A stretch of 64,000 nt of DNA from a virus, in the IMG/VR virus record IMGVR_UViG_3300027791_000007, positions 1-64,000 of that record; one strand, 5' to 3'. Both the position numbers and the translations under genes were made by a program. Of the stretch, positions 1 to 41,800 are shown piece by piece. Under the pieces are notes generated by a model. That model had not been told where the DNA came from. It made no database searches and saw only the letters and a program-made list of their open reading frames with translations. Positions within the stretch are counted from its first letter, which is position 1. Every line of letters starts with the position of its first letter.

Positions 1-1751
1 AAATCTTGCCCAGAGTCAGTATCATCCATAAATATAGAACGACAATCTTTAAATGTATGTGTAACAACTTCTGTAATAGTTAAGTCTGCATTTGCAACAT
101 TCTCTACAATCTTATTGGCTTCACCAGAATCCGAGGCTTTAATCTTTTCACCAACTGCAAAAGTTCCAACAACTGTTGTCAGAACGACTTTACCAGAACC
201 AGTACCAGAAGCAAATACATATCCAGTTGCGGCAGAAGTAACACCAGTTACTTGAACACCACCACTTGCATGATTAGCGAGTAGCGTTCCACTAGGTGTA
301 CCACTTAATGTAAGTTTAGTAAAAGGTCTAACATCCCACAAATATAAATCATAAACAGCAGCAGAAGTTCCTACAACACCAGTACGATATTCAATTGCTT
401 TTCCTCGAGCAACACCAATCTGATTTCCAGAAGATGTACCGTTAGTAACAATCTTATCATCGAATAACCCAATTGTTTTGTATGCAGTAGATTCTCCAGA
501 AATAAATGTGATATCTGGTTGTCCAAATATATTTGTTATTTGACAAAAGTTTCCGATTTCATGTGTAACAACACCAGTGTTAACAGAATTAAAATCTCTT
601 GCTTTAGGTAAATCTTTAAACGTAGGTGATATTTTTTCTAATTCATAACCCTTGACATATGCTTTACCAGGCGAAACATGAAGAGAAAGCAAACTTTCAT
701 CTGGAGTTCCACCATCATCTGTAGTAGTTTTCCCAGCAAACACACCTTGGTAATTAGTATTTCTTGCAGTGATATTAGTACTTTCTCTCATATCAAAATT
801 AAAAGGACGTACAGTATATGATCCACTTTCATCGAAAGTTCTTCTTGCGAGAGTATCTCCTAATACATCGTATTCTGTAACTCTGGCTTGTCCAACCATA
901 GTACCGTTTTCAATTCTCATCAGTTCTACAAAATTAGAGTCTGCTGTTGAAGAAGTAGTTCTTGAGTCGAGTGTTAAAGTAATTTTTAATCTATGGGCAC
1001 CTTTGGCTGCATAGTTAGATGAACCAGTTGCATTATCAGTTAAACTGGTATCTATTTCTGGTGTCGATAATGTTTCTGTAATTGAAAAACCAACTCTTGC
1101 AGTGACAGCATTAGAGTTTGTTGACAGTACTAATCTTTGAGCGGCACATCTTACAAACTGTCCTCTTACATAGTAAACACCCTCTTGTAGTTCAACTGCA
1201 AGTCCATCTTGAGTAGCAGTAGTACCATCAATTGGTGAGAATATAGTTCCAGAAGCATTATTAGAAGCATATGATGTAGTATGAGTAATACCAGCATTTG
1301 CAGTTATGTTCTCACCATTTACAAATCTTTGAGATACACCATCTGTTCCAGTATTTACATATTGAACATACAACATAGGTTGTGTTGTTGAAGTTGCAAT
1401 TTGAAATCCTATAACTTTAGCTGTAACACCAGATATTTGTCCAGTGATAACTACATTGTTAGTTTGATTATAATATGAACTTGGGTTTACTGTTTCGTTA
1501 GAAAATGTTCCATCCAACTGTACTGTTTGGAATTGTTTCATTATGGAAAGTTGGCCAGGTATAACCACTGTTCCTTCTTTGAACATGTGATTACCATGCT
1601 GTTCGACTTGGTTTTGTAGGATAGACTGTAGAGTTGTTAACTCTCTAGCCTGAACTGCAAAGCCTGGACGAAATAATACTCTGTGAAAATCTTTATCTTT
1701 ACTAAAGTCATCATAGTATGGTGATACATTTAGGTCGGTGAGTTGAGCCAT
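1..1751 (-). CDS. VrlC-like / DUF4815-type virion structural protein (3' end runs off the window)
   Basis: Not in the ORF track. ATG at 1749-1751 reads MAQLTDLNVSPYYDDFSKDKDFHRVLFRPGFAVQARELTTLQSILQNQV, the typical N-terminus of the large structural gene after gp8 in marine T4-like phages. Contains the LARRTFDESGSY motif. Confidence 0.85.
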   Translation of the reverse strand, partial: MAQLTDLNVSPYYDDFSKDKDFHRVLFRPGFAVQARELTTLQSILQNQVEQHGNHMFKEGTVVIPGQLSIMKQFQTVQLDGTFSNETVNPSSYYNQTNNVVITGQISGVTAKVIGFQIATSTTQPMLYVQYVNTGTDGVSQRFVNGENITANAGITHTTSYASNNASGTIFSPIDGTTATQDGLAVELQEGVYYVRGQFVRCAAQRLVLSTNSNAVTARVGFSITETLSTPEIDTSLTDNATGSSNYAAKGAHRLKITLTLDSRTTSSTADSNFVELMRIENGTMVGQARVTEYDVLGDTLARRTFDESGSYTVRPFNFDMRESTNITARNTNYQGVFAGKTTTDDGGTPDESLLSLHVSPGKAYVKGYELEKISPTFKDLPKARDFNSVNTGVVTHEIGNFCQITNIFGQPDITFISGESTAYKTIGLFDDKIVTNGTSSGNQIGVARGKAIEYRTGVVGTSAAVYDLYLWDVRPFTKLTLSGTPSGTLLANHASGGVQVTGVTSAATGYVFASGTGSGKVVLTTVVGTFAVGEKIKASDSGEANKIVENVANADLTITEVVTHTFKDCRSIFMDDTDSGQD

Positions 1752-13741: not shown

Positions 13742-14353
13742 TCAACAACCTATGGATTTAGGATCGTCATCATATAACATAGAGTCTTGATATCCATTTG
13801 GAATAGTACTTTCTGGTTTTGTAAACTTAAAACTAATGTTACCAGCAACAACTATTCTTTCATTCTCTGATTCACTCTTAGGAACAGAATGTTTTATATT
13901 ACTTGGAAAGATAATCAAGTCACCTATCTCTGGTTCAAAAACTTGTTTGACTTCTGGAAAGACAAGTGGTGGTGAAGTCTTATCTACTTTACTATAGTAA
14001 CACCAAGACCATAAAAATGGCCAATGTGTATGTTCAACAACTTCTTCTGACCATCTTTGAACATTTCCCCAACACTCACTATTATGTAATTCAAACTTAC
14101 CAGACATCTTCTCGCACTCTATCATAACGAGGTTTGTAAGTCCTTTAACACAATCATCTTGTTCGTGTAGATACCAACTTGTCATAGTTGCTTTTACATT
14201 TGATAAATGTTTATCATCCGTTGCATGTTTACGAACGGCTTCTTGTATATGTGTATTCTCTACCTTGTCTAAAACATTAAGATGCACAAGAGGTACACGA
14301 ACACTTGCATCGAACATACTACTAGAACTTTTTAATATATCCGTTAAGCCCAT
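13742..14353 (-). CDS. putative 2OG-Fe(II) oxygenase
   Basis: HTH...IIFPSNIKHSV...ERIVVAGN double-stranded beta-helix motif. Confidence 0.8.
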   Translation of the reverse strand: MGLTDILKSSSSMFDASVRVPLVHLNVLDKVENTHIQEAVRKHATDDKHLSNVKATMTSWYLHEQDDCVKGLTNLVMIECEKMSGKFELHNSECWGNVQRWSEEVVEHTHWPFLWSWCYYSKVDKTSPPLVFPEVKQVFEPEIGDLIIFPSNIKHSVPKSESENERIVVAGNISFKFTKPESTIPNGYQDSMLYDDDPKSIGC

Positions 14354-15408
14354 TCTTCCGTCCTCTTCTCTTTTAGTAAATTTATTTTTTTATTACAGAC
14401 ACGATAACATACTCTACATGGTTTGTCAACCCAAGATTCTTTTAGTTTAGTAAACCACTGATTAGTCATGACTTTTGTTGCACCATATTTTATTGCATCA
14501 TGTGAATCATCTTTTAGTATCTCACCTATAAGTCCATCTTCCTCAACTGGATACGATGGTTTGAAATAAGTATCTTTGGTTCTCCATCTGTGTATTGAAG
14601 CACCAACCCAACAACAAGGAACTATCTCACCAGTGTAGTTTACAAATATCTCTTCATAATCATCTTGTAAAGCTTTACACGATATGTCTAGGTTCTCTGG
14701 CGGCCAAGGTATTGTAGAAAGGTTTGGCATCTCCTTTGTTGTTGTCTCTTCTAATTTATGATCCACCCCATCTAACTTATATTTTTTGTATCCTTTACCA
14801 TTGTGAAATCTTGTGGTATACACAGAAATAAATTTTTTGAATCCATACTCTTCCGATAATCTCTTTGCTTCTTCTAGTTGATGTTCATTATGTTTGAACA
14901 CTAGGAAAGACCATTCTGCATTACCACCAGCAGATATAAATGATTTTGCATTTCGTATAATCTTATCGTAGTTTGTTCTATGTCTATACAATGCATGTGT
15001 AATATTATCTGTACCATCTAGTGCAAACACAACTCTACGATTTTTGTTATTAAACATACTTCCGAAATGATACCACCATTCTTCTGTCTTTAAACTTCCG
15101 TTAGTAGTAACATTAAGTATTATCTTTGGATTATTAAATATGAAGAACTCTACAATCTCATGTAAATCTTTAGTTGCGATAGGGTCAGAATAGTTTCCGA
15201 CAAATCTTACATTTGATATTTGGTGTGTATTCCAGAACTCATCATCAAAGATTCTTTCTATATCTTCAAGTCTAAGTTCTGTAGTTTGCATACCAGCCTG
15301 TAATCTTAATTCACCATTAGCAGAAGTGTTTCTACCACACTGTGGACACATGGCATTACACTTGTTAGATAATTCTATATGAACCTTTAAAGGTTTTCCG
15401 CTATACAT
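14344..15408 (-). CDS. radical SAM protein with C-terminal SPASM/twitch domain
   Basis: CNAMCPQC; GNYSDP; TNGS; C-terminal C...GEIVPCC...CRVCYRVC. Confidence 0.9.
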   Translation of the reverse strand: MYSGKPLKVHIELSNKCNAMCPQCGRNTSANGELRLQAGMQTTELRLEDIERIFDDEFWNTHQISNVRFVGNYSDPIATKDLHEIVEFFIFNNPKIILNVTTNGSLKTEEWWYHFGSMFNNKNRRVVFALDGTDNITHALYRHRTNYDKIIRNAKSFISAGGNAEWSFLVFKHNEHQLEEAKRLSEEYGFKKFISVYTTRFHNGKGYKKYKLDGVDHKLEETTTKEMPNLSTIPWPPENLDISCKALQDDYEEIFVNYTGEIVPCCWVGASIHRWRTKDTYFKPSYPVEEDGLIGEILKDDSHDAIKYGATKVMTNQWFTKLKESWVDKPCRVCYRVCNKKINLLKEKRTEEWA

Positions 15409-15579: not shown

Positions 15580-15869
15580 CAATCCATTTCCGTAGGTCTT
15601 AATTGAGATTCTTTTAAAAGTGATAAAGAAGCTTGTACAACTCTTTGGGGATATTTAATATCGTATCCAGTTCCTGCTTTAAGTGATTCTAAATCAAGTA
15701 ATGGTTTGTGCCAGTGTTCTAATGTATCCCACTTCTCTATAAGTTGTTTACATATGTCATCATATTCTGTATCGTCTATTAGACTTTCGTTTTCTTTGTA
15801 ATAACAATATGATAACATTAAATAATAAGGAACTAACATGTTAGGATTTGTAAGGTAAGGTTTCTTCAT
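15579..15869 (-). CDS. stand-alone NAD-dependent DNA ligase domain Ia-like protein
   Basis: YY-x7-DxEYD (YYKENESLIDDTEYD) matches the LigA subdomain Ia motif; no adenylation domain follows. Confidence 0.6.
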   Translation of the reverse strand: MKKPYLTNPNMLVPYYLMLSYCYYKENESLIDDTEYDDICKQLIEKWDTLEHWHKPLLDLESLKAGTGYDIKYPQRVVQASLSLLKESQLRPTEMD

Positions 15870-16084
15870 TCGCCAACTCTCATCCATTTTTCACTAGGCC
15901 GTCCTCTCATCATAGTTCTTTGGGTTCGCATGTCATCATTATATATTACAGTAGTATAGATAAGACCACAAATTAAATAGAATTTTAAAAAGAAACTAAA
16001 CACCGGCAACTTTCATACATATGAGTATTGATATAACTAACATAGTCAGTACCAGATACTTTTTATCTTGATGAGGTTCAAACA

Positions 16085-22545: not shown

Positions 22546-23797
22546 GAAATAAATCCTTTAATCGTAACATATTATTATCTATGCTATCCCAATTAGGGCG
22601 TTTTGGTCTAAGTCTGTCTTTAAGTTCTGTATCATCTTTGAGTTGAGCCCATTGCACTTCTTTTGGCATACCAGTTTCCCCATTCGTTATGTGTTTAATA
22701 GCATCCTTTGATATTTTATCACCACCCTCTAGATAGTCTACTGCCCGTTGTATTGTATCATCTGGTAGAAATCTTACGTTTTGACATTTGGGTCTATACA
22801 CAAAGTTTGAGTGTAAATTTATTAAATCTTTTCTACCCTCTTCACGGGCCCACTTTTCAAACTCTCTTATATTAAACAAATTAAACACACTTACAGTAAA
22901 TTGATATGATATGGATATGTCTGAAGCAAACAACAACAATTGTTTAGTGTTTCTTGTCCATTGTTCCCAAGTGTGTGGATATCTTATATAATTATAATTG
23001 GCATCAGTTCCATCCACCGATAAATTAATCTTGGCACTTTTAAACTGACACATTTTTTCGTAGATGTCTGTGCCTTTGTATGTGCCGTTTGTAGTTAGTG
23101 AAAGTTCTATATGAGCTGAATGTCCAGTTTCTAACATGTAGTCCATCACCTCATGTACTTGTGGAATCAATGTTGGTTCACCACCAGTAAACTTTAATGT
23201 TCTTATGTGTTCTGCATTTGACTTTAACTTATCATAAAAAGCAGGGTTTTGCCACCATTGTAATTCATCTGTAAACCCTGCTTTTTTATAGTCTGCCCAT
23301 ATTTTCTCTTTTTTCTCTTTACGGTTTCCTGCTTTATGCCACCATCCCTCTTTATAATTGTTCCACTTTTCTTTTGCAATAAGAGAACTAGATGCAGCTT
23401 CACACATATTGCACATTAGATTACACTTACTACCAAGTTTTAAGTCTACATACGACCATTCATGTTCAGTTACAAGGTCATTCTCTAATCTTTCATTAGA
23501 ACCTAGTCTCATACTTTGTATACCAGCTGCTTCTTGATCCCAACATTTATCACACCTTGGGTCTTTTATACCATTGTCTAAGTTGTCTCTTAGTGATTTC
23601 CACCAATCTGTTTCCCCATGATTTTCATTCCACATTGGTGGATCGCCAAACGTCACATTCCGAATGGGTGAAGTTCCTGCCTCCTTCTGACTTCTCATGA
23701 ATATAGTACAACAAGGTTTATTCAGTCCATCTGTAGACATACATATCCCACCATGTGCATAAACACACAGCGTGTTTTTTTTGTTAGCATCAATCAC
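22535..23797 (-). CDS. radical SAM protein with N-terminal twitch domain
   Basis: N-terminal C...PCC...CxxC, then CNLMCNMC, FTGGEPT, TTNGT, SVDG. Likely GTG start overlapping the thyX stop. Confidence 0.9.
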   Translation of the reverse strand: MIDANKKNTLCVYAHGGICMSTDGLNKPCCTIFMRSQKEAGTSPIRNVTFGDPPMWNENHGETDWWKSLRDNLDNGIKDPRCDKCWDQEAAGIQSMRLGSNERLENDLVTEHEWSYVDLKLGSKCNLMCNMCEAASSSLIAKEKWNNYKEGWWHKAGNRKEKKEKIWADYKKAGFTDELQWWQNPAFYDKLKSNAEHIRTLKFTGGEPTLIPQVHEVMDYMLETGHSAHIELSLTTNGTYKGTDIYEKMCQFKSAKINLSVDGTDANYNYIRYPHTWEQWTRNTKQLLLFASDISISYQFTVSVFNLFNIREFEKWAREEGRKDLINLHSNFVYRPKCQNVRFLPDDTIQRAVDYLEGGDKISKDAIKHITNGETGMPKEVQWAQLKDDTELKDRLRPKRPNWDSIDNNMLRLKDLFHGR

Positions 23798-24401
23798 GAA
23801 GCGCCGTCCAACTAATAGGAAAAAGTTCTTTTGCAGCATCGTCAATCATCTGTGCAATTTGTTGTGTTTCCCTCTGTGTATCTGGTTTACATCTTAGATT
23901 ACATACACGGGCAAATGCCATAAGTGTACCACTCCAATACCACTCCGTGTATAAATTCTGTGGTAATATCATTCTTGCCATCTCTGGTGCAACATTTGCT
24001 TTCAATAGATTGTTGTATGTTTGTGCCACAAATTGGACAGCACCATCAATATTGTATTCTATAGTTTCATCTGATGAACCTTGTTTTTTGTCATCTGCTT
24101 TAAGTCTCCATTCATTAGGAATGTAAAACTCTGGTTCATCATCTACATAACGTCTACTGACTTCGTTCCACACCAAACCGACTTGGTGTTTCACAAGTTG
24201 TCTTGCAACAAAGATTGGTGCCTTAATTCTGAATTGCATTGATGCATGTCCAAAAGGACTCCAGTGATTGTGTTTTGCAAGAAAATTGATGAGTTTCTCA
24301 TCTCCTTTAGAAAACTCTGTACTCTCTTTTGCGAAAGATACACGAGCTGCATTTACTACTGATAGGTCTGTTCCCATCATATCTATTATTTCTACGTTCA
24401 T
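23790..24401 (-). CDS. thyX: FAD-dependent thymidylate synthase
   Basis: VVNAARVS, HWSPF, APIFVARQLVKH, NEVSRRYV, EMARMILPQ. Confidence 0.95.
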   Translation of the reverse strand: MNVEIIDMMGTDLSVVNAARVSFAKESTEFSKGDEKLINFLAKHNHWSPFGHASMQFRIKAPIFVARQLVKHQVGLVWNEVSRRYVDDEPEFYIPNEWRLKADDKKQGSSDETIEYNIDGAVQFVAQTYNNLLKANVAPEMARMILPQNLYTEWYWSGTLMAFARVCNLRCKPDTQRETQQIAQMIDDAAKELFPISWTALRD

Positions 24402-36982: not shown

Positions 36983-37526
36983 GTACATTAAAGCAGTTCA
37001 AGACGCGGCAAAAGGTCGTCCAAAGTCTACTGATTGGTATAGAGAAAAAATAAAAGAGTTTGGCACACCAACCACTATGGACTTAATCAGAGATGGTAAA
37101 AGGTCAACCAGACCACACTTTGGGCGTTTAAATATGTTTATCTATTCACCTAGAGATGCAAAGAAGTTGCCCTACTATGATACATTCCCTTTAGTTCTAC
37201 CGTTAGAACTATATAGTGATGGATTTTTAGGTATCAACTTTCACTATCTACCAATACCACTTAGAATAAGATTGCTTGATAGAATAGTAGACTTTAGTAG
37301 TAATACATTGTTTAATGAAAAAACTATACTAAATGTCACATATAATAAAGTAAAAGGTATTAGATTAGTCAAACCAACTATACATAAATACTTGGCAGGA
37401 TATACAAAAAGTCAATTCAGAAGAATTGATGCAGATGAATTAACTGTAGCAACTCTACTGCCAGTGCAAAGATTTAAGAAAGCCTCTGCAGCAGCAGTCT
37501 GGTCAGATTCAAGAAAGATGGTATAA
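36969..37526 (+). CDS. gp2: DNA end protector protein gp2
   Basis: LPYYDTFPLV, GFLGINFHYLP, VWSDSRK. Confidence 0.92.
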   Translation: MAVSKYIKAVQDAAKGRPKSTDWYREKIKEFGTPTTMDLIRDGKRSTRPHFGRLNMFIYSPRDAKKLPYYDTFPLVLPLELYSDGFLGINFHYLPIPLRIRLLDRIVDFSSNTLFNEKTILNVTYNKVKGIRLVKPTIHKYLAGYTKSQFRRIDADELTVATLLPVQRFKKASAAAVWSDSRKMV

Positions 37527-38257
37527 TGAGTATTGCAAAAGATATACTAAGACAATTAGGTGTTGTATCAGATGACATTGAAAGCGCAGCCGCTGGGTTT
37601 CGTAACGATGGTGTTGCACAACCTAACAAGTTTGAAGTAATTCTATCATGTCCAACTGGAACTAGAGGTTCACAGACAGGCGGCAATGCACTAGATAACG
37701 TATTTTCCCTACTTATGGGTAAAGTTAATAGTGATGGAACAGCAAGAGCAACTGGATTGAGATGTTCACAAATATCTTTTCCAGGCAGAACTCTTGATAC
37801 CGAAGCAGACACAAACATATATGGCCCGACAAGAGAAATTGTTCAAGGATATAGTTATCCAGAAGTAACAGGCACTTTTCAGTGTGGCCCAGATATGAAA
37901 GAAAAACAATTATTTGAGAGTTGGCAAAGACTCGCATATAATCCACAGACTTGGTCTATGGGATACTACGATGACTACGTTGGTAGTGTCACTATATACC
38001 AATTAAACAATTTGAACGCCAGAACATATGGCATTGAATTAGTTGATGCATTTCCAAAACAAATTGCAGAACAAGCTTTGGACTATGCAACCAATGACTC
38101 CTTTCACACTGTAGGTGTAACATTCTCCTATAGATATTGGAAGTCTTTAAATTCTGAAAGTTCATTGCCTGCACCAATAGAAGAAATGCTTGAATCAATT
38201 GGTGTTGATACAGTGAGAAGGACGAATTTGAAAAACGTAGCATTTACGAAAAGATAA
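37526..38257 (+). CDS. tail tube initiator gp54-like (gp19 fold)
   Basis: NKFEV, C..ISFPGR, FESWQ, YYDDYV, AFPK, VTFSYRYW. Confidence 0.75.
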   Translation: MSIAKDILRQLGVVSDDIESAAAGFRNDGVAQPNKFEVILSCPTGTRGSQTGGNALDNVFSLLMGKVNSDGTARATGLRCSQISFPGRTLDTEADTNIYGPTREIVQGYSYPEVTGTFQCGPDMKEKQLFESWQRLAYNPQTWSMGYYDDYVGSVTIYQLNNLNARTYGIELVDAFPKQIAEQALDYATNDSFHTVGVTFSYRYWKSLNSESSLPAPIEEMLESIGVDTVRRTNLKNVAFTKR

Positions 38258-38277
38258 TTAATAAAGGATGAATAATT

Positions 38278-38982
38278 ATGGCACTACCAAGACTAGATAC
38301 CCCTACCTATGAAATAACAATTCCTAGTTCAGGCGTAATAACAAAATACCGTCCATTCTTAGTCAAAGAACAAAAAGTTCTTATGATGGCACAAGAGAGT
38401 GACGATGTAGGCAATATAGCAAATACAATTACTGAATTAGTTGCATCTTGTACCGATGGTGGTATTGATGCACAGAGACAACCAGTATTTGATATTGAAT
38501 ACTTGTTTATGAAAATTCGTGCAAAATCAGTTGGGGAAACTGCTAAAGTATCTGTACTTTGCCCAGATGATGGAAAGACAAAAGTTTCAATTGATATTAA
38601 ACTAGATGAAATTGAAACTCAAATGTTTGATGAACACACAAATGTTGTTTCTATAACAGATAAAATTAACCTTATTATGAGATACCCTACACTAAAGGAT
38701 TATGCAAAATATTCCACTGGTGGGGATGCAACAATGATGTTTGAGATGATTAATCATTGTATTAATGAAATGCATTTTGATGATAAGATTTACAAAAGAG
38801 TTGATGTATCAGATAAAGAGGTACAAGAATTTGTTGATCAGATGAATACACAACAATTTCAAGCAGTAGTTGGTTTCTTTGAAACTATGCCTAGACTTAG
38901 ACATGAAATTACGGTAGTCAATCCAAAGACTAAAGTAGAATCTACTGTGCTATTGGAGGGGCTGCAAAGTTTTTTAGGGTAA
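38278..38982 (+). CDS. gp26: baseplate hub assembly protein gp26
   Basis: MALPRL.TPTY, YRPFLVKEQKVL, FDIEYLF.KIRAKSVGE, FFETMP.L.H, LEGLQSF. Confidence 0.92.
   Translation: MALPRLDTPTYEITIPSSGVITKYRPFLVKEQKVLMMAQESDDVGNIANTITELVASCTDGGIDAQRQPVFDIEYLFMKIRAKSVGETAKVSVLCPDDGKTKVSIDIKLDEIETQMFDEHTNVVSITDKINLIMRYPTLKDYAKYSTGGDATMMFEMINHCINEMHFDDKIYKRVDVSDKEVQEFVDQMNTQQFQAVVGFFETMPRLRHEITVVNPKTKVESTVLLEGLQSFLG
38970..38979 (+). other. candidate -1 ribosomal frameshift site T TTT TTA GGG
   Basis: X XXY YYZ heptamer in the correct gp26 frame; the -1 frame is open into gp51. Confidence 0.7.
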
Positions 38983-39017
38983 TCCTTTCTCATGAAACAC
39001 TAGAAAACTATTACAAG

Positions 39018-39170
39018 ATGAACTTCTCGTTGATGCAACATCATCAATATAGTTTGAGTGAATTAGAAGATATGATACCTTGGGAAAGGGATATATATAC
39101 TGGATTACTTGCAGAATACATTAAAAAAGAAAATGAAAGAGTAGAGAGAGAAAACAATAAGAATAAATAG
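39018..39170 (+). CDS. gp51: baseplate hub assembly chaperone gp51 (probably expressed as a gp26-gp51 frameshift fusion)
   Basis: Not in the track: (SHETLENYYK)MNFSLMQHHQYSLSELEDMIPWERDIYTGLL; homology extends upstream of the first ATG. Confidence 0.88.
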   Translation: MNFSLMQHHQYSLSELEDMIPWERDIYTGLLAEYIKKENERVERENNKNK

Positions 39171-39212
39171 ATGTAAAGGAAATACTTATGTTAATTAAAT
39201 TAGTAGGGGGAA

Positions 39213-39332
39213 ATGATGAAGACCCCTTTAGTATCAGAAGTAAGGAAATGGGTGTTTAGGGCATATATTGTTTGGAGTATATGTGCTGATATCGCCTTAC
39301 TTAGCGGCCTAATTTATTTGATTGTATTTTAA
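39213..39332 (+). CDS. small membrane peptide (39 aa)
   Basis: AGGGGG RBS; MMKTPLVSEVRKWVFRAYIVWSICADIALLSGLIYLIVF. Confidence 0.55.
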   Translation: MMKTPLVSEVRKWVFRAYIVWSICADIALLSGLIYLIVF

Positions 39333-39347
39333 CGAGAGGAAGAATAA

Positions 39348-39677
39348 ATGGCAGAAGAAATTAAAAAGGCTGGATTCCATCCAGCAGATAGTAACGGTGA
39401 TGGCAATGTTAGTCCAGATGAACATCAGATGTATCTGGAATTTAAAAGAAAAGAATTAGAGGATGTAGATGCGAGGCGTGATGCAATGAGATATATGACA
39501 TGGTTTGCTCTAATGGGTATGTTATTCTATCCATCAGGCATTTTGATTACATCACTGTTAGGACAAGAAGTAGCTGCAAAGTTGATTGCTAATATTGCAC
39601 CTACATATTTTGTTGCAATCTCAGCATTAGTTGCTGCTTATTTTGGTGCAAATGCATACGCTGATAAAAAGAAATAG
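39348..39677 (+). CDS. 2-TM membrane protein with EF-hand-like motif (holin-like)
   Basis: DSNGDGNVSPDE; two TM helices; basic C-terminus. Confidence 0.65.
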   Translation: MAEEIKKAGFHPADSNGDGNVSPDEHQMYLEFKRKELEDVDARRDAMRYMTWFALMGMLFYPSGILITSLLGQEVAAKLIANIAPTYFVAISALVAAYFGANAYADKKK

Positions 39678-39686
39678 GAAAAGTAA

Positions 39687-39899
39687 ATGACTCAAGAGAC
39701 AGAACGAACTGCTATAGAGTTTAGTGAAGATGGTAAAGTAGAACAAATTATTGTTGATCCTGCTGGTAAGGGTGATGTTCAAGCAGGTATTGAATTTATA
39801 TATCACATGAGAGAACACATATTAGATGTAGGTGTAGCAACAGCATACTTATTTGGTTGTTATGCATTGTATCTATGGTTAAAGAAGGTAATTAAGTAA
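39687..39899 (+). CDS. small membrane protein
   Basis: C-terminal TM helix, coupled to the next gene. Confidence 0.6.
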   Translation: MTQETERTAIEFSEDGKVEQIIVDPAGKGDVQAGIEFIYHMREHILDVGVATAYLFGCYALYLWLKKVIK

Positions 39900-41800
39900 T
39901 GGCTGATAAATTCGACAGAGATATAATTAATGCCCTAAAAGCAAACAATGCAAAACTTGCTGAATCAATTGAATCAGATAAGAAGAAAGCATTAGATGAC
40001 AAAGTTTACAGTGCTGATCAAGTTGCAGAATTGAGGAAACTCTCAAAGGTTTCTGGCACCGCTGCAAAAGGTGTATCTAAAGAAGCAAGAGCAGCTGCAG
40101 ATAGGGATATCAAAGTCTTAGACAATCAGGCAAAACTCTTAGGTATATCAGCAGAAGAACTTGCAGGCAGACAAGCAGAAAAATCAGATATTGAAGCACA
40201 AAAAGTTGCACTACAAGAAATGAAAGATGCGATAACAAAAGCTGGTGGTAATGCAGAAGAGAATATTGCACTACAAAGAGATGCAGCTGGTATTGCACGA
40301 CAAGAAGCAAGATTAGAAAAAAAGAATAAAATGGGTATCGCTGGTAGAATGAAAGAAGAAGCGAAATCTAGAGCAGCAAATATGGCTGCAACATTTAAAT
40401 CATTAGCGAGTTTAGAAGGTATCAAAAATGGATTAAAAGGTTTAGGTGGTGGTGTTGTAGATGTGGCAAAGAGTGGTGCTGGTGGATTAATTGGTATGAT
40501 TAAGAAAGGTGCTTTAGCACTCTTACTTCCAGCAATCTTTGCATTTGTTAATAGTAAATACTTCGACCAACTAAAAACCTTTTTAATAAACAAAGTAATA
40601 CCAGCAGTTATGGCACTTGTTAAGGTATTCAAAGAAGATATTTTTCCAGTAATTATGAAAATAGTAGATTTCTTTGTAAAAGAGATATACCCAATTATTG
40701 AAGATGTATTCCTTAAACAGTGGGCTAATATTAAAAAGGTATTCAGTGGAATTGGTGATGCATTTAAACTATTTCAAGAGGGTGATATTCTTGGTGGTAT
40801 CACAAAACTATTTGGTTCAATTGGAACATTCCTAATAGATACCTTAGATAATGCTGTCACTGGTATATTTAATGTAATTGGTAAGATATTTGGATTTGAG
40901 GGAACTGATTCTATAGGTGGATCTATCAGTAAATTTTTTAGTGACATATACGGTAATATCACTGGGTTCATATCCAAAACTTGGAATGGTGTAAAAGACG
41001 GCGCAAAAAATGTATTTAAGAGTGTCACTGGTGTTTTTTCATCAGCGTTTAATTTTGCAAAAGATAAGGTAACTGCTGGTTGGAATGGAATTACTAGTTT
41101 TGTTAGTGATAAGTTTGCAAATATCATAGGTTTTTTTAAGGATCTGTTTACATTCAAACCAGGCGATACTTTTGCCACTAAGTTTTTAGATATAATCCTA
41201 CTACCTTATAATCTTGCAATAAACTTCTTTAGAGATATATTTGGTTTTGGTAAAGATGAACAAGGTAAAACAACACCATTTAGTCTGGGTAAGTATATTA
41301 TGAGTGTTGTTGATGATGCTATAGATTTTGTAAAAGGTTTATTTGACTTTAAAGTTCCTAGTATGGGTAAAATAGCTGGTGATGCTGGTAATATGATAGC
41401 TAATCTTCTAAAGTCTATTCTACCACCCCCAGATTTCTTATCTTTTGATTTACCATCTATGACTTTATTTGGTAAAAAGTTTGGTGGTGGTGAAGTGAAC
41501 CTTAACCCTATACCAGATGCAGTTTATAAGTTTGCTGGATTAGATCCAGCAACAGGCTTAGATTTAGTTAATAATGCAAATTCTGTTGAGGCAGGATCAA
41601 TTGATCCAGTTGCAGAGGCAGAAAAGAAAAAGATGATTACTGGTTCAGAACAAATGTCTAATCCAAGAGGTGGTACAACAAACACCACAGTAATTAGGGA
41701 TGAGAGAAAAACTATTGATAATGCGAATAAATCCACAACCTACCAAGGGCAGTCGTTAATGCATAACAACAATGCCCCTGGCTTTGATGGTGTATTTTAG
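39899..41800 (+). CDS. tape-measure-like tail protein (gp29 position)
   Basis: Coiled-coil N-terminus, G/F/W-rich amphipathic 11-residue periodicity (WNGV/WNGI); downstream of gp26/gp51. Confidence 0.7.
   Translation: MADKFDRDIINALKANNAKLAESIESDKKKALDDKVYSADQVAELRKLSKVSGTAAKGVSKEARAAADRDIKVLDNQAKLLGISAEELAGRQAEKSDIEAQKVALQEMKDAITKAGGNAEENIALQRDAAGIARQEARLEKKNKMGIAGRMKEEAKSRAANMAATFKSLASLEGIKNGLKGLGGGVVDVAKSGAGGLIGMIKKGALALLLPAIFAFVNSKYFDQLKTFLINKVIPAVMALVKVFKEDIFPVIMKIVDFFVKEIYPIIEDVFLKQWANIKKVFSGIGDAFKLFQEGDILGGITKLFGSIGTFLIDTLDNAVTGIFNVIGKIFGFEGTDSIGGSISKFFSDIYGNITGFISKTWNGVKDGAKNVFKSVTGVFSSAFNFAKDKVTAGWNGITSFVSDKFANIIGFFKDLFTFKPGDTFATKFLDIILLPYNLAINFFRDIFGFGKDEQGKTTPFSLGKYIMSVVDDAIDFVKGLFDFKVPSMGKIAGDAGNMIANLLKSILPPPDFLSFDLPSMTLFGKKFGGGEVNLNPIPDAVYKFAGLDPATGLDLVNNANSVEAGSIDPVAEAEKKKMITGSEQMSNPRGGTTNTTVIRDERKTIDNANKSTTYQGQSLMHNNNAPGFDGVF

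Follow-up and report, generated by a model that had tools for sequence, protein, structure and literature searches.

A predicted -1 frameshift in a gp26-like gene

A single gene of an uncultured marine T4-like phage very probably directs the synthesis of two proteins, predicted to be 234 and 297 residues long, by -1 ribosomal slippage near its 3' end. The gene begins at position 38278 on the + strand of the 64,000-nucleotide stretch analyzed here (positions 1 to 64,000 of IMG/VR virus record IMGVR_UViG_3300027791_000007), which is referred to below as the window, and its products resemble T4 gp26 and gp51. This interpretation is based on the register and conservation of a slippery heptamer, a switch of coding frame at that site, homology to gp26 and gp51, the number of family members per genome, a fold match to phage tail assembly chaperones (TACs), and gene order. 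The features at the junction are:

38278..38982, + strand: zero-frame gene, short form of 234 residues (26.5 kDa), T4 gp26 equivalent by its matches to PF12322 and phrog_150
38970..38976, + strand: slippery heptamer T_TTT_TTA in X_XXY_YYZ register, read from the sequence and conserved in relatives
38980..38982, + strand: zero-frame stop codon TAA, read from the sequence, one codon 3' of the heptamer
38976..39170, + strand: -1 frame extension, 64 codons plus TAG, with homology to phrog_634, phrog_150 and the C-terminal tail of T4 gp51
39018..39020, + strand: first ATG of the -1 frame, the start if the reading frame is called independently, probably not the real start
38278..39170, + strand: predicted long form of 297 residues (34.4 kDa), of which 233 are read in the zero frame and 64 in the -1 frame, T4 gp51 equivalent by comparison of the joined product with gp51

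The zero-frame open reading frame (ORF) ends in AGT TTT TTA GGG TAA. The -1 frame is closed before 38937 and open from there to the TAG at 39168-39170, and the +1 frame is closed at the junction. Read from 38976, the -1 frame encodes RVILSHETLENYYK and then the methionine at 39018, with no earlier ATG, GTG or TTG. The 18 nucleotides 5' of that ATG (CTAGAAAACTATTACAAG) contain no Shine-Dalgarno motif of the GGAG/GAGG/AGGA type, and a motif of this type is present before the neighboring starts at 38278, 39348 and 39687. An initial annotation, made from the sequence alone, had placed T TTT TTA at 38970-38976 in the correct frame at the end of gp26, with the -1 frame open past the gp26 stop, gp51-like sequence starting about 14 codons before its first ATG, and no obvious ribosome-binding site ahead of that ATG. 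All four statements were confirmed, the distance from the slip site to the ATG being exactly 14 codons.

As a chance baseline we used the 96 stop-to-stop ORFs of at least 100 codons in the window, which has 35% GC. An in-frame X_XXY_YYZ heptamer occurs in the last 15 codons of 13 of them, and 4 of these 13 also keep an open -1 frame over 50 codons or more. A lone heptamer at the end of an ORF is thus within chance in this window and is not significant on its own; the weight of the slip site comes from its conservation in relatives, not from its single occurrence. Three other ORFs with a heptamer so placed lie at 23788-24126 (+ strand), 14346-15408 (- strand) and 15581-15890 (- strand); their heptamers are TTTTTTG, AAATTTA and TTTAAAA, their -1 frames are open for 52-213 codons, and some possibly overlap neighboring genes. 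Runs of six T's are five times more common than runs of six A's on the + strand of the window (103 starts and 21 starts, respectively), presumably reflecting coding-strand bias.

Conservation of the slip site and of the -1 coding frame

Eighty related IMG/VR loci were fetched, two of which ran off their contigs, and the 78 usable loci span 98-33% protein identity. The sequence T_TTT_TTN is present in the same register, 6-9 nucleotides before the stop, in 78 of 78, a count which, like those below, overstates the number of independent observations since the loci share ancestry. The zero-frame stop follows the heptamer after zero or one codon in all relatives, and the -1 frame stays open for 173-203 nucleotides past the stop wherever the contig allows (locus L047 runs off its contig). 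Site counts were made on 48 distinct homologous junction sequences. The run of six T's is invariant in all 48, the heptamer taking the forms TTTTTTA, TTTTTTC, TTTTTTT and TTTTTTG. The codon 5' of the run ends in T in 48/48 (AGT, GAT, AAT or TCT), with the encoded residue varying between S, D and N. The phenylalanine codon at the slip site is TTT in every one of the 48, as against 79% TTT and 21% TTC elsewhere in these genes. Even with the shared ancestry, synonymous sites are otherwise free to vary at such divergence, and judged from these alignments the conservation of the heptamer exceeds chance.

The -1 frame peptides of the relatives align without gaps from the heptamer onward, with the consensus FFRIxLSHDSLxNYYKTNFALMQHHKYSLTELENMxPWEREIY. 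Relatives have their first -1 frame ATG anywhere from 12 to 102 nucleotides after the heptamer, with none in locus L066, and the conserved residues LSHDS..NYYKTNF stand before it. Third-codon-position variability follows the zero frame 5' of the heptamer and the -1 frame in the 40 nucleotides directly 3', before the position of the window's ATG, and this switch ahead of the ATG argues against independent initiation. The extension has seven invariant columns and the third-position variability typical of coding sequence, among relatives whose gp26 part is down to 33% identical; the alignments point clearly to purifying selection on the extension.

A canonical slip site followed by the -1 extension is also found in six cultured phages: cyanophage S-RIM14, Prochlorococcus phage P-HM2, Aeromonas phage PX29 (Straboviridae), Pseudomonas phage pf16, Xanthomonas phage BUDD and Ochrobactrum phage ORM_20. 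The initial annotation had named an alignment of such junctions as one way to check its proposal, and both the heptamer and the -1 coding are conserved there, in the IMG/VR loci and in the six cultured phages alike.

Three further phages depart from the canonical site. Salmonella phage ViI (L083:3770-3970) and Vibrio phage D503 (L095:2120-2340) possess a -1 extension with the ..MPW.. motif behind the non-canonical sites A_ATT_TTC and A_CTT_TTC, respectively, at which only the A-site phenylalanine tRNA could re-pair. The record of Stenotrophomonas phage IME-SM1 (KR560069.1, L086:3690-3900) reads GAT TTT TCG at this position, five T's instead of six, so that the annotated "gp26" is prolonged by 30 codons of nonsense-looking sequence and the +1 frame holds the conserved extension. 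With six T's the IME-SM1 protein would end ..DFFG*, as in relatives. The missing T is probably a homopolymer sequencing error, and it could reflect real length heterogeneity.

Two predicted products and the T4 paralogs

The short form matches PF12322 (T4_baseplate) over profile positions 2-218 of 219 (E 2.5e-60), a full-length family match, and phrog_150 over positions 5-232 of 282 (E 4e-64). The -1 ORF matches phrog_634, "baseplate hub assembly catalyst" (E 7.5e-26), and positions 234-280 of the 282 in phrog_150, which follow the part covered by the zero-frame product. The extension alone is similar to T4 gp51 residues 201-249, both by BLASTP (E 8e-6) and by hhalign with an alignment of 41 extensions (E 3e-5), and a single BLASTP segment (E 6e-10) pairs residues 21-287 of the joined product with residues 13-249 of gp51. 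The architecture of the long form, a PF12322 domain followed by a conserved C-terminal tail, arises only by way of the -1 frame. By homology, the unshifted product is the gp26 equivalent and the whole predicted frameshift product, rather than the downstream ORF, is the gp51 equivalent. A fusion of gp26 to gp51 had been proposed in the initial annotation; the frame of the fusion is borne out, and the downstream ORF corresponds to no more of T4 gp51 than its C-terminal ~48 residues. The predicted junction of the long form is ..LQSFL|RVIL.., giving the predicted trans-frame peptide VESTVLLEGLQSFLR or ...SFFR, and the extension is modeled by AF2 as three helices (pLDDT 83). A protein search for longer forms of the extension gave a single uninformative match, a 164-residue read-on ORF.

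In T4 the two lengths are encoded by two genes. T4 gp51 (249 residues) matches PF12322 over residues 1-201 (E 3.9e-52) and phrog_150 over positions 13-280, and T4 gp26 (208 residues) covers phrog_150 positions 14-235; on these profile matches, gp26 and gp51 are paralogs, gp26 being the short one and gp51 the long one. The two genes are transcribed divergently, and no heptamer is present at the end of gene 26 (GAG TTC TTT GAG TTA CTA TAA); a frameshift between them is impossible in T4. There are two PF12322 genes in the T4 genome and one each in S-RIM14, ViI, PX29, pf16 and the window's own genome (148 kb, 84% complete). Of the single-gene genomes, the window's genome, S-RIM14, PX29 and pf16 have the canonical heptamer and ViI the non-canonical site; PF12322 gene number and the heptamer are inversely related. 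In-frame gp51 orthologs are found in ~1,375 records of T-even-type phages, most commonly those of Escherichia, Klebsiella, Shigella and Acinetobacter. The frameshift that the initial annotation had proposed for this T4-like lineage is accordingly a property of the single-gene relatives and not of T4 itself.

Leiman et al. (2010, PMC3004832) list T4 gp26 and gp51 among the hub assembly chaperones, describe the roles of both proteins in hub assembly as uncertain, and state that assembly requires gp51, which particles do not contain. T4 gp26 (L082:1806-2429, - strand) also has a weak match over residues 32-141 to phrog_1140, "baseplate hub distal subunit," which is the gp28 family (E 9e-4), and gp28 may be distantly related to gp26 and gp51 as a third paralog. 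The C-terminal parts of T4 gp26, T4 gp51 and many relatives contain CxxC pairs (CPECG, CPKCK); the window protein retains only one cysteine there (CPDDG ... NPKTK). Residues 87-233 of the short-form model give several weak structural matches (Z ~3) to zinc-ribbon proteins, and a metal site seems to have been lost in the marine clade of the window.

Fold and gene order

The AF2 model of the short form has a pLDDT of 88 and a pTM of 0.83. It was aligned exhaustively with 48,161 representative PDB chains, and for residues 1-95 the top three chains were 3FGX (Z 7.5), 2OB9 (HK97 gp13; Z 7.1) and 3KLU (YqbN; Z 6.7), with 84-85 residues aligned in each and the next match at Z 4.7. These three structures are the solved phage TACs (PMC9603447). 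HK97 gp13 and its frameshift product are annotated in NC_002167. The structural matches are suggestive of a TAC-like fold in the modeled N-terminal domain, and three TACs at the top of such a ranking are hard to ascribe to chance. Other searches returned no link to TACs: Foldseek of the short-form model against the PDB gave no match at E <=0.001, the matches listed by Foldseek against BFVD were of the gp26/gp51 family or uncharacterized and none was named a tail assembly chaperone, a sequence-profile search of the PDB with the family alignment gave nothing relevant, hhalign of that alignment against HK97 gp13 found no similarity, and an ESM Atlas search with residues 1-95 returned only the family itself.

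The genes on either side of the proposed chaperone gene are:

37526..38257, + strand: tail-tube-like gene directly upstream (phrog_45 tail tube, E 1.9e-33), in the place that gp54 occupies in Aeromonas phage PX29
39213-39332, 39348-39677 and 39687-39899: three small ORFs of 39, 109 and 70 residues with hydrophobic stretches, between the chaperone gene and the tape-measure-like gene
39899..41800, + strand: tape-measure-like protein of 633 residues, matching eight tape-measure families of PHROG (E as low as 2.8e-12)

The tape-measure-like protein has no Pfam match, and the three intervening ORFs probably encode membrane proteins, judged from their hydrophobic stretches. The order in PX29 is gp4, gp2, gp54, gp26, small ORF, long protein, gp3, with which the order of tube-like, chaperone and tape-measure-like genes in the window agrees. 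In S-RIM14, P-HM2 and PX29 a long ORF directly follows the extension, unlike in the window. The initial annotation had placed the frameshifted pair just upstream of a tape-measure gene; a tape-measure-like gene does lie downstream, separated by the three small ORFs rather than adjacent. Its broader proposal, that gp26 and a gp26-gp51 fusion are the equivalent of lambda G and GT, gains support from the comparative, structural and gene-order evidence, with the refinements described here.

Candidate stimulators of slippage

Two elements flank the slip site:

38955..38961, + strand: Shine-Dalgarno-like GGAGGGG, candidate upstream stimulator, from the sequence and the GAG enrichment in relatives
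38982..39001, + strand: hairpin position by folding, 5-6 nucleotides after the heptamer, with only 4 base pairs (TTTC/GAAA) in the window

The GGAGG core (38955-38959) ends 10 nucleotides 5' of the heptamer. The homologous glutamate codon is GAG in 25 of 40 sequences, as compared with 28% GAG in the rest of these genes. The most divergent relatives lack the motif. The GGAGG may, together with the nearby zero-frame stop, stimulate slippage. A stable downstream hairpin of -9.8 to -17 kcal/mol can be folded in relatives L008, L011, L019, L024, L032, L059 and L063. As a universal stimulator the hairpin was rejected: 63% of cells are paired across 42 distinct sequences, covariation is modest and the fold in the window is weak. 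By these predictions the hairpin is lineage specific.

Alternative explanations

It is formally possible that the -1 ORF is an independent small gene of 50 residues, translated from ATG 39018 either through independent initiation or through reinitiation by ribosomes that have terminated at the gp26 stop, so that no fusion protein exists. The records of S-RIM14, PX29, pf16, BUDD and P-HM2 are annotated in just this way, as the initial annotation had said such genes usually are, and some relatives have an ATG or GTG only 9-12 nucleotides after the heptamer. However, the candidate start in the window is not preceded by a Shine-Dalgarno motif, its position is unconserved and in L066 there is none, the most conserved N-terminal residues lie 5' of most candidate starts, the coding constraint on the -1 frame starts at the heptamer itself, and the residues of T4 gp51 that match the ORF are in frame and internal to that protein. 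An independent gene would also leave the invariant T's, the preceding NNT codon and the exclusive use of TTT unexplained, and we consider it highly improbable. A scan of 37400-40000 for promoters and terminators found nothing between the two ORFs above shuffle expectation. Still more improbable is slippage of RNA polymerase rather than of the ribosome, by which a subset of mRNAs would have one U fewer or two more. The invariant element is indeed a homopolymer run, and the IME-SM1 record, with its five T's and its extension in another frame, is what length heterogeneity, or a sequencing error, would produce. Efficient slippage by bacterial RNA polymerase usually needs runs of about nine or more bases, and this run has six. 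Transcriptional slippage has no need of the X_XXY_YYZ register or of a close stop, yet these are kept in 78/78 loci, where shared ancestry could also preserve the register, and the seventh base is confined to forms that permit tRNA re-pairing.

The least probable of the alternatives is that the -1 ORF was once an in-frame gp51-like tail and survives as an unexpressed remnant, with only the short form being made. In its favor, the window lacks a strong stimulatory RNA structure and the long form is a prediction, a point that also tells against our own interpretation, both of whose products are predicted. Against a remnant stand the purifying selection on the extension, in relatives whose gp26 part is as little as 33% identical, and the lack, in the genomes tested, of a second PF12322 gene to supply the long form.

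Several other observations weigh against ribosomal slippage as the explanation or against parts of it. In bacteria, U_UUU_UUA supports slippage with only moderate efficiency. The downstream RNA of the window folds with -3.7 kcal/mol (z 0.2) and forms no stable stimulatory structure, and the hairpin seen in some relatives lacks generality. ViI-like phages and D503 keep the extension without the canonical heptamer, and in them the long form must be reached by a different route. The fold match to TACs is moderate (Z <8), covers only ~90 residues and has no sequence-level support.

A model for the two forms and its significance

We propose that the gene at 38278 encodes a tail or baseplate-hub assembly chaperone that yields two products. 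The majority of ribosomes would end at the TAA at 38980 and produce the 234-residue short form, the gp26 equivalent. A minority would slip back one base with the phenylalanine and leucine tRNAs on UUU UUA (38971-38976) and resume at AGG 38976 in the -1 frame, producing the 297-residue long form, the gp51 equivalent, which would bear a 64-residue three-helix C-terminal extension. We infer the ribosomal nature of the slippage and its efficiency. By analogy with lambda gpG and gpGT, the TAC-like N-terminal domain common to both forms would handle the tape-measure protein. The extension, which only some of the molecules would carry, would recruit tube or hub partners, and neither product would remain in the virion. 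The division of labor between the two forms would likewise follow that of the lambda proteins.

More generally, it is likely that T4-type myoviruses carry an ancient frameshifted TAC module. In most lineages (marine cyanophages, pelagiphage-like phages, and phages of Aeromonas, Pseudomonas, Xanthomonas and Ochrobactrum) it would consist of one PF12322 gene slipping on T_TTT_TTN, and in the T-even lineage it would have been resolved into two paralogous genes, with 26 for the short, G-like form and 51 for the long, GT-like form. The kind of mechanism, a frameshifted TAC gene, is already known, and what is added here is an explanation for T4 gp26 and gp51. If the model is correct, the long-puzzling "catalytic" gp51 gains a concrete role as the long form of a chaperone, the functions of gp26 and gp51 become testable, and a near-universal recoding event of long-tailed phages is extended to the large T4-like group. 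The two arrangements would also offer a natural comparison of two ways to fix the ratio of a short to a long protein, by frameshifting or by two genes.

A systematic annotation error would be corrected as well. In the records of the six cultured phages the extension is a separate small ORF, or is unannotated (ORM_20), and is never described as a slippage product; where annotated, it is called a "hypothetical protein" or a "gp51" of 30-60 residues, in families for which many hundreds of phage records were found. The P-HM2 "gp51" (L098:2289-2381, T4-like gene cluster 12) is an example: it is annotated from an internal ATG with only 30 residues, and the conserved -1 coding begins 93 nucleotides before it, at the heptamer. 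A search of the literature returned no description of frameshifting in genes of the gp26/gp51 family, which may nevertheless have been recognized earlier.

Comparison with known systems

The heptamer of the window is identical to the U_UUU_UUA of HIV-1 gag-pol, and in the window only it is followed by GGG, completing the HIV-1-like UUUUUUAGGG. The initial annotation had drawn attention to this shared context. The heptamer and the GGG are indeed present, but the GGG is not conserved, relatives having AGG, AGC, AGA, CGA, CGG, ATG and others in its place, and judged from this variation that part of the resemblance is coincidental. Unlike gag-pol, the window belongs to a bacterial system and has a zero-frame stop one codon downstream, and no stable stem-loop or pseudoknot of the HIV-1 type was found in the window 5-9 nucleotides downstream of the heptamer.

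The flanking elements can be compared with those of the -1 frameshift in Escherichia coli dnaX, in which an upstream Shine-Dalgarno sequence, with a spacing like that in the window, and a downstream hairpin accompany the slippery site A_AAA_AAG. The shared elements are the Shine-Dalgarno-like GGAGG 10 nucleotides 5' of the heptamer, with GAG enriched at this codon in relatives, and a hairpin 5-6 nucleotides downstream in some relatives. The heptamer differs, the flanking elements are not universal in the phage genes, and the dnaX frameshift yields a shorter product whereas the one proposed here yields a longer product.

With T4 the window shares the protein family: PF12322 is found in both, the short form corresponds to gp26, and the long form corresponds to gp51 and is colinear with it over the junction. 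The difference lies in the arrangement, which in T4 is a pair of separate, divergent paralogs and in the window a single gene with a proposed frameshift.

A close parallel is with the TAC genes of long-tailed phages, in which a conserved -1 frameshift was reportedly described by Xu, Hendrix and Duda in 2004, with lambda gpG and gpGT as the example. There are clear differences from lambda. No sequence similarity was found, the window protein belonging to PF12322 and not to the Phage_TAC families; it has roughly double the length, with an additional C-terminal domain and a short extension (64 residues); three small ORFs precede the tape-measure-like gene; and the pair in the window is a prediction from sequence and model. 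The points in common with lambda are a slippery heptamer close to the 3' end of a chaperone gene, the location of that gene between those for the tube and the tape measure, a -1 ORF that lacks a start, a shorter and a longer product, both predicted for the window, with the same N terminus, and an N-terminal domain for which the structural matches suggest a TAC-like fold.

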